From positions 11,133-75,132 of the forward strand of contig CACZWD010000012.1 of the NCBI GenBank assembly GCA_902784805.1: DNA of 64,000 nucleotides, given 5' to 3'. Position 1 is the stretch's first letter. The number at the start of each line of letters is the position of its first letter. Under the pieces are notes generated by a model that ran no database searches, was not told where the DNA came from, and saw only the letters and a program-made list of their open reading frames with translations. The translations under genes were made by a program, and so were the position numbers. Source of the DNA: an uncultured Ruminococcus sp. GTDB taxonomy: Bacteria; Bacillota; Clostridia; RUG12999. Shown here in pieces: positions 15,339 through 60,490 of this stretch.

Positions 15339-15974
15339 CTAGAAATTTACATATGTTGTAAGCTTGCCCATATATTTGTCATATCCGTAATCTTTTACGA
15401 CAAAATTACCGTTTTCATATTCCAATATAGTGCAGGAAGCGTTTGAGGCCCACGGAAGACCTTTTGTTTCTTCCGGAGTCATGCCATACAGCTTTGCGGA
15501 AGTAAACCGTATTACGGCGGCATGGCAAAAAACAAAAATTGTTTTGCCTTTATGCTTTTCGGCAATATCCGTAAGCGCTGAAACAATCCTTTTCTGTACA
15601 TCGCCTACACTTTCGCCGCCCACACAGTGGAGCCTTCCTATATCATTACACCAAATATTGTATTCATCAGGAAATTTTTTAGCAATATCTTCTATTTTTA
15701 AGTTTTCCCATTTGCCTCCGTACATCTCCCTGAAGCGAACGTCTTTTATAACCTTCATACCTTTAAGAGAGGCTGTGCAAATAGCAGTTTCAAAAGCCCG
15801 GCTTAAATCGCTCGAATAAATAAAATCCGTATGAATGTTTTTTAAATATTCCGCCGCTGTTTTCGCTTGTAAACGTCCTTTTTCGGTAAGCATCGCGTCA
15901 GTATGACCGACATAAGTATTACTTAAATTCGCCTCGGTTTCGCCATGACGAATGAGATAAATTGTTGTTTTCAT
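15339..15974 (-). CDS. histidine phosphatase family protein (phosphoglycerate mutase-like)
   Basis: 211 aa. Catalytic RHGETEAN motif at the N-terminus and a later CHAAVIR histidine motif. Confidence 0.8.
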   Translation of the reverse strand: MKTTIYLIRHGETEANLSNTYVGHTDAMLTEKGRLQAKTAAEYLKNIHTDFIYSSDLSRAFETAICTASLKGMKVIKDVRFREMYGGKWENLKIEDIAKKFPDEYNIWCNDIGRLHCVGGESVGDVQKRIVSALTDIAEKHKGKTIFVFCHAAVIRFTSAKLYGMTPEETKGLPWASNASCTILEYENGNFVVKDYGYDKYMGKLTTYVNF

Positions 15975-15982
15975 AAAATCTC

Positions 15983-18077
15983 CTACTGTAAGCTTCTTGT
16001 AATGGAAATAACGCCGCTGACATTTTTAAGCTTTGCGATAAGCTCGTCAATTTGCTCCGCGGTGCTAACTTCAACACCTACATTTACAAGAGCCTCCATA
16101 TTTTTATTAACTCTTGCGTTAAAGGCATTTGAAGGTATTTTCATGGTTGAAATAATATTGATTATATCAGCAAGAAGCCCCGTTCTGTCATCAGCGACAA
16201 TAAGAAGATCGGCACAATAGCGCTCGGCGGGAGAAGCGTTTTCCCAGCTGACGTTTACTATACGGTTTTCACTCTGTTCGGAATCAATGTTTTTAACATT
16301 TACGCAATCTCTTCTATGGACTGATACACCTCTGCCACGGGTAATGTAGCCTACAATATCATCGCCCGGAATAGGTCTGCAACATTTTGAAAGACGTACA
16401 AGACAACCTTCAAGCCCTTCGACAATAACACCGCTGCCACCGCCTTGGTTTTTTGCGCTGTGACGGCTGCCGACAGCGGGAGCTTCGATTTTCTTTGTAC
16501 GGCGTTTATATTCCTCCCGCATTTTCTGAACGACCTTTGCGGCAGGTATTCCGCCAAAACCGATTGCGCTGTATAAGTCGTCTGTTGTCTGAAAATTGTT
16601 TTTACGCAAAATTTGCTCAATGGTTTCGGGAATCATAAGCTGTTGAGCGGTGTAACCGGTCTTTTTTATTTCGTGCTCAAGCATATCTCTGCCAAGGGAA
16701 ATATTTTCCTCTCTGCCCTCTTTTTTAAACCATTGATTTATTTTTGTTCTTGCGCTGCTTGTTTTTACAATATTAAGCCAGTCACGGCTCGGACCGTGTT
16801 TACCTTTGCGCCCATTGTTTTGTTGCCGATTGCCGAGTGTATGCTGTACGCGAAATCAATGGGGCATGAACCTTTCGGGAGCGGAACGACGTCACCTTTC
16901 GGCGTAAAAACATATACCTGGTCGCTGAACATATCGACCTTTAAAGCGCGCATAAATTCGTTACTGTCGGGAACTTCATCCTGAAGCTCCATAACCTTTC
17001 GTATCCATGCAAGCTTTTCGTCATCGCCCGTGGTTTTGCCTTTTAAGCCCTGTTTGTATTTCCAATGCGCGGCGATACCGTATTCGGCAGTTCTGTGCAT
17101 TTCCTGTGTGCGTATCTGAATTTCAAAATGTGAAGCGACTGATACATATTTGCCTTTGCCATTGAGATATAATCCTTTATTCTGCCCGGAAGCGGACGGT
17201 ATATTTCATGAACAGCGCCAAGCACAGCATAGCAATCGGAAATGGTTTCGACAATTACACGAATCGCAAAAATATCGTAAATTTCGTCAATTGTTCTGCC
17301 CTGCATAAAAGTCTTTTTAAATATGCTGTAATTGTGCTTAACTCTGCCGGCAATAGATAAAACTTTTATATCGATTTCGTTAAGCTTTTTCATTATTTTA
17401 TCTATATTATACTGAATAAAATCATCATTACGGCTTAATTTTTCGGCAACCTGAGATGTGATCTCATTGTAAGCAATAGGGTCAAGATGCTTTAAGGACA
17501 AATCCTCAAGCTCCGCTTTAACTTTAAAAATACCGAGTCTGTCGGCGATGGGAGCGTAAACCTCAATGGTTTCAAGCGATTTTTTAAGCTGCTTGTGAAG
17601 GGGCTGCGCGTCTAATGTACGCATATTATGAAGTCTGTCGCAAAGCTTTACAAGCACGATACGAACATCTTTCGCGGTCGCAATAAACATTTTGCGTAAG
17701 TTTTCGACCTGCTCCTCCTCTTGGGTTGTAAACTTAATTTTTCCAAGCTTTGTAACGCCTTCAACCATATCTGCAATTTCGGGAGAAAAAAGCTTCGCGA
17801 CTTCTTCGTGTGTAACCTCCGTATCTTCGATTACATCATGTAAAAGCCCCGCAATAACGGTATCTTTATCAAGCGAGAGGTCGGCAATTATGCGCGCGAC
17901 TTCAAGAGGGTGACAAATATAGGCTTCGCCCGAAAGCCGTTTTTGCCCCTTATGAGCTTTTTCCGCAAATTCATACGCGCGTTTTATTTCTTTTGTATCC
18001 TCCGGTGAATAAAGCGTTTTTGCCTTATTTAAAAGGTCGGCGAAAAGCTCATCCGGATTTGTGTTTACCATACTCAT
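15983..18077 (-). pseudogene. relA: bifunctional (p)ppGpp synthetase/hydrolase RelA/SpoT homologue, disrupted by two internal frame-shifting deletions
   Basis: Three consecutive ORFs cover the gene: 17043..18077 (HD hydrolase plus most of the synthetase), 16765..17100 (end of synthetase plus TGS) and 15983..16684 (helical/ACT). At about 17128 the sequence jumps from ...NMYQSLH to FEIQIRTQEMHRTAEYGIAAHWKYK in another frame. At about 16796 it jumps from ...GAKVN to GPSRDWLNIVKTSSARTKINQWF in another frame. Confidence 0.85.
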
Positions 18078-20098
18078 TCGGTTTTAATACCTCTCTCTTT
18101 TTTAAAGTTTTTAAGTGTGATTGAAGATTCAAGGTCAACCTTCCCTGCTGTATTTTTAATATATATATCATATATTCCGTTGTTTTCGGCATAAGTGAGA
18201 AGCTTCATTTCGGCAAAGATATCCATACAAAGCCGCAATTTTTGCTCAGGGAAATAACATCCCTCCGCAAGTGAAAGCCTTCTTGCCAAAAGCGCCTCTT
18301 TTATACGCAGAAAATCATTCCTGCAGCTTCCCTTTATAATGCTGTAAAGACGCGCGAAATCAAGCCTTTTGGGTACAGCATCGGTTTCTTTTTGTAATGC
18401 CGAATATTTAAAATCTCTTAAAACAAATTGCACACGGCTTATATCATTCCATGTATTAAGCGTAAGATTGCCGATTATATCAATGGTATCGCCGGAAATT
18501 ATGAGGTCTGAGTCCTGTCCCATACCAAACCCGATAGCGTCAAAATAAACTCCGTTTTTTTCAAGAGAAAAACGCAAATGCTTACCGTCTCCAAGAAGCC
18601 TGTAACCCATAATCTTGCATGCACCGACAGTAAAAACCGGAAGCGGATTGCCCGTTCCGCAGGGTTCAAAAATCTTAAGTTCCCGCGCGACCTCGGCAGA
18701 TATATATTTACTCGGAATTTCAAAATCGGCTTTAAGAACAACTCTTTTCCCTTCGGGCGGAAGAAGTCCTTCAGCGTATGCGTTGATTTTTTCATCAAGC
18801 AGTTCAAGATTTTCTTCCGGAAGCGTAAGCCCCGCCGCAAGAGCGTGTCCGCCGTATTTTATAAAGATATCTCCGCAGGCACTCATTGCCTCAAAAAGAT
18901 TAAATCCCTCAACACTTCTGCCCGAGCCTTTTGCTATGCCTTCATTTACGGTTATGAGAAGACACGGTTTTGAATATTTATCGGATATTTTTGATGAAAC
19001 TATACCTATTATGCCACTGTGCCATTCTTTTCCCCACACAACAAGAACAGGTTTTTTCTTATAGCTTTTGTCATTTTCTATTATATTTATTACATCATCA
19101 AAAATTTCTTTCTCAATTTCCTGGCGGTGCCGGTTTTCCTCCATAAGAAGCGTTGAAAGCTTTTCGGCCTCAGGTTTGCTTTTGCTGAGCAGAAGCATTA
19201 CGCCGTAGCAGGCATCGCCTATTCTTCCCGCGGCGTTTATTTTTGGCGCAAGACCGTAGCCTATACCCGAAACGGTTGAAACCTTATCGCCGATACCGAT
19301 ATAGTCTATAAGCGTTTTAAGACCTATATTGTTTGTGTTTTTTATATGCTCAAGACCATAGTTTACGATAATGCGGTTTTCACTTTCGAGACTTACAACA
19401 TCGGCAATTGTGCCGAGAGCAATAAGCTCACCCAGCATATCAAGAATTTTTTTCTGATTTCCTCCTTCAAGGGCTGAAATCAGTTTGAATACAACGCCGA
19501 CTCCCGCAAGAGCTTTAAACGGATATGAACAATCCGGCTGTGTCGGGTTAATGACCGCACAGCAGTCGGGTACGGTTTCTTTACATCTGTGGTGGTCGGT
19601 AACAATAACGTCCATACCCATTTCACATATCGCGTCAATTTCTTTGCAGGCGGTAATTCCCGTATCAACGGTTATAACAAGCGTTGTGCCCGTTTCAAAC
19701 AAGCTGCAAAGCGCGCCTGTATTTATGCCGTAGCCCTCCGAAGAACGGTCAGGTATGTAATAATTCACAATGCCGCCTTTTGAGCGAAGATACAAAAGGA
19801 GCGCGGAAACGGAGGTTATGCCGTCAACGTCATAATCACCGTAAATTGTTATATGTTCTTCATTTTCAAGAGCAAGATTTATACGGTTTACGGCTTTATC
19901 CATATCCTTCATCAAAAACGGAGAGAGCAAATCATCCACGGATTTTGCGCAGAATTTTTCAAATTCCTTTGCACTTTCAATGCCTCTTGAAAACGCAAGA
20001 GCCGTGGTGACGGGATTTTTGCCCGTTTCGCGCGCAAGCCTTCTGACCTGCGGCGTGTCGGATAAATCTTCGCCGACAATCCAATCATATCTGTTCAT
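18074..20098 (-). CDS. recJ: single-stranded-DNA-specific exonuclease RecJ
   Basis: 674 aa. DHH-family motifs GDYDVDGITS, TVDTGI and VTDHH, plus a DHHA1 region with GGHALAAG. The 4-nt overlap with relA suggests an operon. Confidence 0.9.
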   Translation of the reverse strand: MNRYDWIVGEDLSDTPQVRRLARETGKNPVTTALAFSRGIESAKEFEKFCAKSVDDLLSPFLMKDMDKAVNRINLALENEEHITIYGDYDVDGITSVSALLLYLRSKGGIVNYYIPDRSSEGYGINTGALCSLFETGTTLVITVDTGITACKEIDAICEMGMDVIVTDHHRCKETVPDCCAVINPTQPDCSYPFKALAGVGVVFKLISALEGGNQKKILDMLGELIALGTIADVVSLESENRIIVNYGLEHIKNTNNIGLKTLIDYIGIGDKVSTVSGIGYGLAPKINAAGRIGDACYGVMLLLSKSKPEAEKLSTLLMEENRHRQEIEKEIFDDVINIIENDKSYKKKPVLVVWGKEWHSGIIGIVSSKISDKYSKPCLLITVNEGIAKGSGRSVEGFNLFEAMSACGDIFIKYGGHALAAGLTLPEENLELLDEKINAYAEGLLPPEGKRVVLKADFEIPSKYISAEVARELKIFEPCGTGNPLPVFTVGACKIMGYRLLGDGKHLRFSLEKNGVYFDAIGFGMGQDSDLIISGDTIDIIGNLTLNTWNDISRVQFVLRDFKYSALQKETDAVPKRLDFARLYSIIKGSCRNDFLRIKEALLARRLSLAEGCYFPEQKLRLCMDIFAEMKLLTYAENNGIYDIYIKNTAGKVDLESSITLKNFKKERGIKTE

Positions 20099-25313: not shown

Positions 25314-27217
25314 TATTCAGCCGCCTCCCTTAATTCCTGACCGAAGAATTCTCTCGGTATGTATTTGAAGTCGAGTGCATTTAATCGTTCCATTTCTTCG
25401 GAATTGAATATGATATTTTGATTCACCCAGATATTTTCAATTTGTGTATAAGCTTCATCGTTCAATACATATTTGCGGAAATCTTTTTTATTTAAAATAA
25501 GCACATTTTTTACATTATCTACCTCAATACTGTTTTGAAGTTCTATCATTTCTTTGATGTGTAAGCATAGAGCATTGCTGAGCAGATAATCCTCTGGCTT
25601 GCGAGGTGTCCAATCGCATTTATAGTATTTCAAATTAGCGGATATTCCTTCTGAATACTTCGTGCCATCTGTGCGAATGCCTGTGATTACAGTTTTTATC
25701 CTTGGATATGTAACGCTATGGCATATACCGAGAGCCTGATATTCGTCCGTGGCAATAGCGGTATGATAATCGTCTGATGTTTTAAACGCTGTCCATTTCT
25801 CTTTCCATTCAGGCTCTTTTTTTGTGCCTTTTCTCGGAGGAGCATCAATAATGCCCTTCTCCTCAAAATAAGATAGTTTCTTTTTGTCTGTAACCTCATT
25901 GTTAGTGCAAATGATAAACTCTCTTTTACCGCCGTCCTCGGCATTTAGCTCTAAAACTGCCTGTGAAGTTGTACCAGAACCAGCAAAGAAATCAAGTACT
26001 ATTGCGTCATCCATGCGTGTAGAGCATATTAGCTTTTTTATGAGTTTAACAGGCTTTGGATAGCTGAAAATTCTTTCCGTACCAAAGAAATCTATAAGTT
26101 CATTGTCCGCATCTTCGTTTGAACCCCATCCGCTATCAAACAGATTATTTACATTGATCGGGGTATCATATGCATTGTTTTCATCATTACCAACTCTGGA
26201 CAGTAAATCCTTCATGGTCTTGTAGCGAGGAGTTGAAACTATTCTCCTAATATATAAAGCGTTGGTTATATACAATTCTTGGTTAATCGAGTATTCATAC
26301 ATGGCATCACTTTTATATCTCCAATTACCCTCGACTTCAAAATCCTGCGTTACAACACCATTTTCAATAACTAAGTCAGTGATGTACTTGATATTCATTG
26401 TGGAATCCGAAATAACGGTACCCGCCGGAACTACATAGTTCTTTTCTCTATAGTTACTCTTTATACCTTTTGATACCTTGCAAATAGAGCGTCTATTGCT
26501 TGCATTAATGCACGGATATGTTTCTGTTTCAGTATTTATTTCACCTATCAAGCCCGCAAAGTCATCTTTGTCCTTACAATAGACAAGGACATATTCTTTA
26601 ATGTTGGTTATTTGATTTGACAAAAAAGACCCTTTTTTCTTTTTTTCCCAAACCAGCTGAGCGACAAAATTCTTAGCATTGAAAATCTCATCACAAAGCA
26701 TTTTTAATGGTGCCATTTCATTATCGTCAATGGACATAAATATTACACCACGCGAGGATAAAAGGTCATAGGCGATTTCGAGCCTACGTTTCATAAAAGA
26801 AAGCCATTTTGAGTGCCTAAAAGTATCCTCTGTTCCGACCATATTATCATTGTAAAAGAAATCTTCATTACCAGTGTTATATGGAGGATCTATATAAATC
26901 ACATCGATTAATCTTTTATGTGTTTTTTGCAACAGATATAAACTTTGCAGATTATCCCCCTCAAGAATAAAGTTATATTTTCCATTCTCGGATGCCGTTA
27001 TTTTCTTTTCAGTATCTTCGGCAAAAACAGGGATATGGGTACGAAGTTTAACATCAACCACCTCTTCATGCTCTTCCCATACAAGACCATATTTTTTGTC
27101 TCGAATATGATTTTCTATTTCCGTAAACGCACGGATGGAGTCATCATCCGTATGTTCTTTTCGTAATGTTTCTAAAAAATCCAACATGCGCTGACGCTTT
27201 ATTTGAGATAGATTCAT
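25313..27217 (-). CDS. mod: Type III R-M Mod subunit (N6-adenine/N4-cytosine DNA methyltransferase, beta-class motif order)
   Basis: 634 aa. Motif IV IYIDPPYNTG precedes motif I LDFFAGSGTT, and a variable region lies between them. Confidence 0.88.
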   Translation of the reverse strand: MNLSQIKRQRMLDFLETLRKEHTDDDSIRAFTEIENHIRDKKYGLVWEEHEEVVDVKLRTHIPVFAEDTEKKITASENGKYNFILEGDNLQSLYLLQKTHKRLIDVIYIDPPYNTGNEDFFYNDNMVGTEDTFRHSKWLSFMKRRLEIAYDLLSSRGVIFMSIDDNEMAPLKMLCDEIFNAKNFVAQLVWEKKKKGSFLSNQITNIKEYVLVYCKDKDDFAGLIGEINTETETYPCINASNRRSICKVSKGIKSNYREKNYVVPAGTVISDSTMNIKYITDLVIENGVVTQDFEVEGNWRYKSDAMYEYSINQELYITNALYIRRIVSTPRYKTMKDLLSRVGNDENNAYDTPINVNNLFDSGWGSNEDADNELIDFFGTERIFSYPKPVKLIKKLICSTRMDDAIVLDFFAGSGTTSQAVLELNAEDGGKREFIICTNNEVTDKKKLSYFEEKGIIDAPPRKGTKKEPEWKEKWTAFKTSDDYHTAIATDEYQALGICHSVTYPRIKTVITGIRTDGTKYSEGISANLKYYKCDWTPRKPEDYLLSNALCLHIKEMIELQNSIEVDNVKNVLILNKKDFRKYVLNDEAYTQIENIWVNQNIIFNSEEMERLNALDFKYIPREFFGQELREAAE

Positions 27218-27277
27218 ACTTGCGTTTCCTTTCTTTGGTGTTTGACACTTATCCTTAAAGCCTATTCCGTTTTAATG

Positions 27278-27529
27278 TCAAGTCAGAGTTTTGCAATCTC
27301 TTTCTGTATAAATTCCTGCATATACATTTGAAGTTGCCATGTGAAATAACTTCTCGATATCAAGCCCACGAAAATGCTCTTTCATTTCGTCTGTCATATT
27401 CTGTGTTCCGTACAGCCCTTCCGCATAATAGTAAAGAGCATCAAGAAATTCATAAAAATCCTTATCGGAAAGCAATTCATCCAAATACGGCATTGTTTTT
27501 ATGCGTTCCAAGTCAGTCTGCGGATACAT
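27278..27529 (-). CDS. hypothetical 83-aa protein upstream of mod (possibly a 5'-truncated remnant)
   Basis: It is co-oriented with mod, with a 60-nt gap and a weak RBS. The in-frame sequence upstream of the ATG still reads like protein (NIKNEGFFGLSEASVECLRRAKE) but has no start codon. Confidence 0.35.
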   Translation of the reverse strand: MYPQTDLERIKTMPYLDELLSDKDFYEFLDALYYYAEGLYGTQNMTDEMKEHFRGLDIEKLFHMATSNVYAGIYTERDCKTLT

Positions 27530-27692
27530 CTCTTTTGCTCGTCTCAGGCACTCAACAGATGCTTCGGATAAGCCAAAAAATCCCTCGTTTTTGATATTAA
27601 AATTTGTTTCGCAAAAATTATAATAACATAAAGTTTCGTATTTGTCAATGATTTCTCAAAAAATTCAAAAACAGAAATTTAAAAATATATGA

Positions 27693-47783: not shown

Positions 47784-48083
47784 CTATGAGATTGTGCTGT
47801 CAATATTGCGGATTATATATCCTTTTTCTTTTAAAAGTTCAGCGACATATTTTAAAAGTATAAGGCTGTTTATCCCGCTGTAACGCGGGTCGCTGTCGGG
47901 GAAATGCCCGCCTATATCGCCGAGCGCGGCGGCGCCGAGCAAAGCGTCAGCGATACTGTGAACAAGCACATCTGCATCGGAATGACCGAGCAAGCCTTTT
48001 TCGTAGGGTATGTTCACGCCGCCTATTATAAGCTTTCTGCCTTCGGTTAAAATATGTACATCGTAGCCGGTGCCAACACGCAT
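47784..48083 (-). CDS. ispF: 2-C-methyl-D-erythritol 2,4-cyclodiphosphate synthase IspF, 3'-truncated (99 aa instead of about 155)
   Basis: From ATG 48083 the product reads [10 protein letters not shown]...[34 protein letters not shown]...NIDSTIS-stop. It lacks the conserved C-terminal third (IAQ.PK...K.TT.E.LGF.GR.EGI). The proS start codon is only about 50 nt downstream, so no space remains for the missing part. Confidence 0.8.
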
Positions 48084-49771: not shown

Positions 49772-50596
49772 TTGGATTATGAGCTTTTCGGTAAATTTAT
49801 CGATTGGCAGATTGAAAGCGGCGTTGACGCTCTTGTTGCCTGCGGTACAACGGGCGAAGCTTCTACGCTTAGCGAACAGGAGCATATGGACGCGATAAAA
49901 TACGCTGTCGAAAGGACGGCGGGCAGAGTTCCCGTTATTGCGGGAACGGGCAGTAACGACACCGAATTCGCGCTTGAGCTTACAAGGTTTGCGTGTGAAG
50001 CGGGAGCGGACGCCGTGCTTGTTGTAACGCCCTATTATAATAAAGCGACGCAAAACGGTCTTATAAAAATGTTTTCAACAATCGCGGACGAAAGCACAAA
50101 GCCTGTTATTCTTTACAATGTGCCGTCCAGAACAGGTGTGAATATCGCTCCGAAAACCTGCGCGGCTCTTGCCGAGCATGATAACATTGTTGCCGTAAAA
50201 GAAGCCAGCGGCAATATTTCACAGATTGCGGAAATCGCGCATCTTGTAAGAGGTAAAATGGATTTGTATTCTGGCAATGACGACCAGGTGCTTCCCGTGC
50301 TTTCTCTCGGTGGCAAAGGCGTTATATCAGTGCTTTCAAACATTATGCCGAAAGAGACGTGCGAAATATGCAGAAGGTTTTTCGCGGGTAACGTTAAAGG
50401 CAGCGCGGAGCTTCAGCTTGACCTTTTGCCGCTTATTGACGCTCTGTTTTGCGAGGTTAACCCCATACCCGTTAAAGCGGCAACCGCAAAAATGGGCTTT
50501 TGTAAAAACTATCTTCGCCTTCCTCTCACAACCATGGAGGAGGCTAATGCCGAAAAGCTTTACTCCATTATGCGAGGTCACGGTTTAATAAAATAA
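49772..50596 (+). CDS. dapA: 4-hydroxy-tetrahydrodipicolinate synthase DapA, lacking about 20 N-terminal residues
   Basis: The ORF begins at a TTG only 3 nt after GGAGG and reads (M)DYELFGKFIDWQIESGVDALVACGTTGE... The conserved first strand (..G...A.VTPF....G.) that precedes this segment in DapA is absent. The rest is full length, including the Schiff-base Lys context VAVKEASG. Confidence 0.8.
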   Translation: MDYELFGKFIDWQIESGVDALVACGTTGEASTLSEQEHMDAIKYAVERTAGRVPVIAGTGSNDTEFALELTRFACEAGADAVLVVTPYYNKATQNGLIKMFSTIADESTKPVILYNVPSRTGVNIAPKTCAALAEHDNIVAVKEASGNISQIAEIAHLVRGKMDLYSGNDDQVLPVLSLGGKGVISVLSNIMPKETCEICRRFFAGNVKGSAELQLDLLPLIDALFCEVNPIPVKAATAKMGFCKNYLRLPLTTMEEANAEKLYSIMRGHGLIK

Positions 50597-60382: not shown

Positions 60383-60490
60383 ATGAAATTAGCATTTTCA
60401 ACACTTTGCTGTCCGAACTATGACTGGAAAGACATTTTCTCCATGGCGAAGGACCTTGGCTTTGACGGCATTGAAGTTTGCTCCCGATAA
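60383..60490 (+). pseudogene. detached 5' fragment (35 codons) of the TIM-barrel/AMP-ligase fusion gene
   Basis: MKLAFSTLCCPNYDWKDIFSMAKDLGFDGIEV then CSR-stop. This is a typical N-terminus of xylose-isomerase-like TIM-barrel (sugar phosphate isomerase/epimerase) proteins. The reading frame switches at about 60479 into ORF 60420..62870. Confidence 0.7.

Follow-up and report, generated by a model that had tools for sequence, protein, structure and literature searches.

The closest described counterparts of the gene examined here are the bifunctional Rel proteins of Firmicutes (long RSH enzymes, TIGR00691), such as those of Bacillus subtilis and Streptococcus equisimilis. The intact allele described below is alike, with HD_4, RelA_SpoT, TGS, AH/RIS, and ACT domains over 731 amino acids; it shares approximately 51% identity with the Rel proteins of named Clostridia, and nothing notable sets it apart. 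Genuine rel/relA loss alleles occur in laboratory relaxed mutants and in host-restricted bacteria without RSH, and if the lesions of the gene as deposited were real, their disruption of the frame in the synthetase and TGS regions would likewise abolish function. Such alleles are backed by reads or isolates, however, and they come without intact copies from an identical strain or parallel deletions in essential genes, unlike the case reported here. The second relevant precedent is the local assembly error. [quoted passage not shown] The lesions that we describe resemble those errors in being short wrong stretches inside scaffolds that break genes, in occurring several to many times per genome, and in being correct in the output of other assemblers. 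The published errors were defined by the absence of any read supporting the junction, whereas those proposed here are deduced from the comparison of assemblies.

Structure of the rel gene as deposited

The source genome is a MAG (66 contigs, 1.67 Mb, 84% completeness), and the window, by which we mean the whole 64,000-nt stretch of DNA that was analyzed, lies on its 79,263-nt contig C12. The long RSH gene (rel, or relA/spoT) occupies positions 15983..18077 on the minus strand, which is the strand of all rel features given below. Immediately upstream is recJ, whose ORF shares 4 nt with rel, while a histidine-phosphatase gene and comM/yifB are found downstream. As deposited, rel comprises 2095 nt compared to 2196 nt for the intact gene, and instead of one polypeptide of approximately 700 to 750 amino acids scoring above the TIGR00691 cut-off it passes through frames 0, 2, and 1 in turn, giving ORFs of 344, 111, and 233 amino acids. 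The genuine 5′ part of the gene (17129..18077), consisting of codons 1-316 plus 1 nt, encodes the HD hydrolase domain followed by the initial two thirds of the synthetase domain; past 17129, the 344-residue ORF1 (17043-18077, frame 0) continues out of frame as far as 17043. Comparison to Pfam profiles identified in ORF1 a complete HD_4 domain (residues 34-183) and, at residues 244-319, positions 1-76 of the 113 in the RelA_SpoT profile. The latter domain is split between frames in the MAG (profile positions 1-76 and 83-111) and extends over positions 1-111 in the intact allele. The middle block, 331 nt between the two junctions (16798..17128), encodes the end of the synthetase domain (FEIQIRT...), a linker, and the first two thirds of the TGS domain. 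The corresponding ORF2 (111 residues, 16765-17100, frame 2) covers TGS profile positions 1-41 of 60, compared to 1-60 in the intact allele. The genuine 3′ part (15983..16797), which runs from GPSRDWL... to the stop codon, encodes the AH/RIS and ACT domains. It is represented by ORF3 (233 residues, 15983-16684, frame 1), which starts at an internal ATG at 16684 and matches RelA_AH_RIS and ACT_4; these two domains are present in the MAG and the intact allele alike.

The two lesions were sized by alignment to the genes of four same-genus genomes and to one 100%-identical contig. At junction 1 (17128..17129), 28 nt (CAACGGTTATTGGCAGAGGCGGCACGCC) are absent with 0 nt of microhomology, and the frame is shifted. 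The loss corresponds to residues 317-326 (TTVIGRGGTP) of the intact 731-residue protein, located in the synthetase domain just before the EIQIRT strand. At junction 2 (16797..16799), 73 nt are absent with 1 nt of microhomology or ambiguity (the C at 16798), and the frame is again shifted; here residues 437-461 (GKLVPLSYELNNGDIVSIITSSSVH) at the end of the TGS domain are lost. Both lengths are 1 modulo 3. The original prediction, made from the window sequence, was accurate in most of these structural points: it had described a long RSH gene split into three ORFs, placed the junctions at approximately 17128 and 16796 (measured here as 17129/17128 and 16798), and named a TTVIG..G.P stretch of about 10 residues as the loss at junction 1. 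Its statement that junction 2 skips the rest of the TGS domain was correct, and only its estimate of approximately 30 residues was slightly high, the true figure being 24 to 25. Its view that both lesions remove multiple bases, rather than reflecting homopolymer errors or a programmed frameshift, agrees with the 28 and 73 nt that are missing relative to the intact contigs. The alignment to RSH genes of close relatives that it proposed provided these sizes and revealed no relative that shares the arrangement. Replication slippage between direct repeats was considered as a cause and rejected because the microhomology at the rel junctions is 0 and 1 nt; it is 0 to 3 nt at five further deletions described below. 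A search for the missing segments at other positions of the MAG yielded one chance 20-nt match only.

Intact rel in near-identical contigs and in relatives

Reading through the three pieces led to a 90% protein cluster with four intact 731-residue members, in which the sole fragments are the 344- and 233-residue products of the MAG's own 79,263-nt contig. Contigs encoding the intact proteins were compared to the window by BLAST. The first of these (L017; ENA ERZ27280356, k141_1903973) is 99.99% identical to window positions 24077-10292 (13.8 kb), and the second (L018; ENA ERZ28613006, STEW19-1_SAMEA5383938 scaffold_10166) is 100.000% identical to positions 21485-11706 (10 kb). Both contigs carry the 28-nt and 73-nt segments, which are the same base for base in the two, and each encodes one 731-residue ORF with every Rel domain present. 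All three pieces of the deposited gene match without a difference: the 5′ part to L018 1-4357, the 331-nt middle block to L018 4386-4716 and L017 6978-7308, and the 3′ part to L018 4789-6243 (100% in each case). Apart from these segments, L017 differs from the window at one mismatched base and by an indel of 1 nt, and L018 by a 100-N gap. These independent assemblies are coherent at the rel site and differ there from the MAG, as would be expected for a local assembly error. The intact ORF (P0121) scores 780 bits on TIGR00691, for which the cut-off is 499. In four of the four same-genus genomes, rel is likewise a single ORF (732 to 742 residues), and both segments are present in all of them. 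The broken form was looked for in turn: 30-mers spanning the junctions gave zero matches in the genome_contigs and metagenome_contigs collections, and an exact look-up of the 344- and 233-residue ORF products found them in no other assembly on record.

The original prediction that the organism has lost its only long RSH enzyme is not supported by these results, given the intact 731-residue ORF in 99.99 to 100% identical contigs from two assemblies and the finding, detailed in the next section, that at least five other genes are hit. The possibility it had itself named as refuting this claim, an assembly artefact, is what the intact near-identical contigs and the similar deletions in other genes indicate. 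On the basis of the near-identical contigs, the organism almost certainly has an ordinary intact bifunctional Rel of 731 residues with HD hydrolase, synthetase, TGS, AH/RIS, and ACT domains, and we are nearly certain that the broken rel is not a real biological feature.

Deletions of the same type elsewhere in the MAG

For a wider comparison, the near-identical contigs L022, L023, L025, L026, and L029 were used together with those over rel, so that approximately 80 kb was covered (window -3237 to 24077, window 30027 to 61614, and C14:16151-36899). Seven differences of at least 28 nt were observed, every one of them a deletion in the MAG, with no comparable insertions, and base mismatches in the compared stretches were few (0 to 11 per contig). 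Besides the two deletions in rel, 163 nt are absent from ispF (window 47790..47791, minus strand), with the 3′ third of the gene gone, where the intact contig encodes a 158-residue YgbB protein. The dapA gene (window 49774..49775, plus strand) lacks 70 nt, including its start codon and 5′ end, and the intact contig encodes a 295-residue DHDPS. A TIM-barrel/ligase gene (window 60476..60477, plus strand) lacks 35 nt near its 5′ end, with 2 nt of microhomology. The remaining two are located on contig C14, where 114 nt are absent from metY (C14:27570/27571; intact product, 424 residues) and 54 nt from truA (approximately 22546; intact product, 245 residues). Microhomology at the seven deletions is 0 to 3 nt, and their lengths modulo 3 are 1, 1, 1, 1, 2, 0, and 0, indicating that there was no filtering for in-frame events. 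The density of approximately 1 per 11 kb over 80 kb, which is an order of magnitude only as the stretches compared were partly picked for suspected lesions, is higher than that of the errors described by Chen et al. (PMC7111523), from which the present cases also differ in all being clean deletions of 28 to 163 nt without Ns.

The lesions are not specific to one gene, as those of a genuine pseudogene would be, with seven deletion-only differences in approximately 80 kb. Bacteria of this kind normally cannot do without ispF or dapA. Because several of the affected genes are indispensable in this sense, and because there are almost no point differences and no in-frame bias, a living cell or lineage with all seven lesions would be implausible and is not credible. 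The breaks in ispF, dapA, metY, truA, and the TIM-barrel gene most likely share their origin with those in rel as assembly artefacts, and for rel itself we consider it very probable that the deletions are scaffold-join or local assembly errors recurring across the MAG rather than mutations.

The positions of the lesions also bear on their origin. Contig C151 of another MAG, G004 (2,653 nt, from a strain approximately 90% identical), terminates precisely at the base that pairs with window position 16798 in the alignment, which is junction 2, and SPIRE scaffold_43302 (L030) starts inside the 114-nt segment that is missing from metY. These coincidences with contig ends place the lesions at break points of the assembly graph, as would be anticipated for local assembly errors. 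The rel gene of several other family members is likewise split over contig ends. The deleted rel segments contain 11 strain-variable columns out of 101, compared to 48 out of 731, a difference that is not significant (p = 0.14) and leaves the idea that the graph breaks arose from strain bubbles undemonstrated for rel.

Other alarmone enzymes and alternative explanations

The search of the rest of the genome for small alarmone synthetases, also suggested by the original prediction, was productive: one such enzyme was found, a YjbM-like protein of 235 residues on contig C14 (G000:C14:40515-41222, corresponding to L001 1363-2070, minus strand). Its scores were 108.6 bits for RelA_SpoT and 167 bits for NF053588, the latter under the equivalog cut-off. 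A stand-alone HD_4 protein of 193 residues (G000:C39, approximately 27100-27690) is a possible small alarmone hydrolase. Given the presence of the small alarmone synthetase and the HD_4 protein, rel would not be the sole (p)ppGpp enzyme here.

These two proteins are relevant to the explanation that both deletions are real in some strain or sub-population, whose long RSH is gone, with the small alarmone synthetase operating instead. Some alarmone metabolism could persist in such a strain, rel null mutants are viable in Firmicutes once the genes for small alarmone synthetases are adjusted, and the two lesions, each a clean removal of multiple bases, lie within a single gene, as this explanation would have it. 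We nevertheless regard a real pseudogene as highly unlikely, because the 100%-identical contigs carry an unbroken gene, the same type of lesion recurs, with almost no SNPs nearby, in ispF, dapA, and three or more further conserved genes, the deleted allele is found in no other assembly (whether by ORF products, cluster, or junction 30-mers), and the contig of another MAG stops exactly at junction 2. Still less credence is given to the more specific proposal of a real haplotype in which rel acquired two independent deletions, which would make these naturally "relaxed" rumen Clostridia with nothing but a small alarmone synthetase of the YjbM type and a stand-alone HD hydrolase to rely on. Were that haplotype real, the other five deletions would also have to be real, in a deletion-prone and decaying lineage, or else be separate artefacts.

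The reverse situation, in which the MAG is true and the extra segments of the MEGAHIT assemblies were drawn in from related strains, takes its plausibility from the co-occurrence of such strains in the samples (L016, L019, and L021, at 90 to 98% identity) and from the capacity of metagenome assemblers to build chimeric paths. It is scarcely believable in view of the base-for-base agreement of two separate assemblies on both rel segments, the presence of both segments in all congeners, and the restoration of full-length conserved proteins by all seven extra segments (Rel and, with 158, 295, 424, and 245 residues, respectively, IspF, DapA, MetY, and TruA). Programmed recoding (ribosomal frameshifting or bypassing) across the junctions to yield a shortened Rel, for which nothing speaks beyond the frame changes themselves, can be dismissed with virtually no reservation since conserved residues, approximately 10 in the catalytic and 25 in the TGS domain, are missing altogether rather than recoded and the arrangement occurs in no relative, with relatives and identical strains having a single frame.

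Origin of the deletions

The favored explanation, errors of scaffold joining or local assembly, can be related to how the MAG was probably produced. The MAG is 100% identical to a STEW19-labelled re-assembly of SAMEA5383938 and to a k87_ contig (L024, ERZ1029115). In the study of Stewart et al. 2019 (PMC6785717), single rumen samples were assembled with idba_ud at a minimum contig size of 300, co-assemblies were generated by MEGAHIT with k values of up to 87, and binning was performed by MetaBAT2 with a minimum contig size of 2000. Those methods fit the k87_ contig names (L024) and the shortest contig of the MAG, which is 2,051 nt. The MAG contains four runs of N (5, 15, 50, and 53 nt) and is therefore a scaffolded assembly. 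Contig names and identity point to SAMEA5383938 as the candidate source sample, with PRJEB31266 as the likely project judging by the data statement of Stewart et al., and to an assembler that was probably IDBA-UD in scaffold mode; the exact join step is conjectural. The IDBA scaffold writer joins contigs directly if the estimated gap is not positive, which would yield N-free deletions of exactly the kind observed.

According to the mechanism that we propose, the assembly graph would have broken around rel, a gene that is conserved and common to the co-occurring strains, leaving three pieces: an upstream contig with its end at window position 17129, the 331 nt in the middle, and a downstream contig beginning at 16798. 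The 331-nt block, which is just above the 300-nt minimum contig size, was probably a separate short contig to which the scaffolder joined both sides. The scaffolding step would then have joined the pieces end to end, inserting no Ns and omitting the 28 and 73 nt between them, and the same process would have dropped short stretches at many other sites of the genome. The junctions have essentially no overlap, and a simple overlap-merge does not account for them. Stripping of Ns from the scaffolds was also considered as the cause and is not favored, as the MAG retains its four N runs.

Implications for the use of this genome

The broken gene is biologically of no consequence, the organism having a normal Rel by all indications. 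The result is of interest as a caution, in that short deletions occur in this public MAG about once per 10 kb (an order-of-magnitude figure), and probably also in others built in the same manner. They can be mistaken for pseudogenes, for truncated enzymes, or for "missing" catalytic residues. Claims of gene loss, reductive evolution, or unusual enzymes that are made from this genome, including any that concern ispF, dapA, metY, truA, or the TIM-barrel gene, need to be verified with reads or an additional assembly.

Assembly differences and strain variation near rel

Several minor observations were made during the comparisons. At the 100-N gap of L018 (6244-6343, aligned to window 15344-15398), the two flanks share an identical overlap of 55 nt, and the MAG has the correct version at this position; the gap corresponds to the error type "Ns inserted despite overlap" of Chen et al. 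2020 (PMC7111523). Approximately 3.2 to 3.8 kb upstream of the window start (G000:C12:7298-7900), the otherwise identical contig L026 differs near one of its ends at 82 of about 600 positions and by two small indels, and this patch is sharply bounded and strain-variable or recombined. The same-genus MAG G004 contains a full-length rel on contig C35 (L004) and, on C151 (L031), a second rel 3′ fragment from a different strain that is 98.4% identical to L016 and approximately 90% identical to the window. The two rel strains in G004, a genome with 6% contamination, indicate strain mixing in the bin. When window positions 16650-18150 were compared to L016, a strain with 92.5% identity, the 5′ 1.5 kb of rel exhibited 0 to 13 mismatches per 200 nt, compared to approximately 15 to 27 in the flanking genes. 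The low divergence of this part of rel could be due to strong constraint or to recent recombination between strains.
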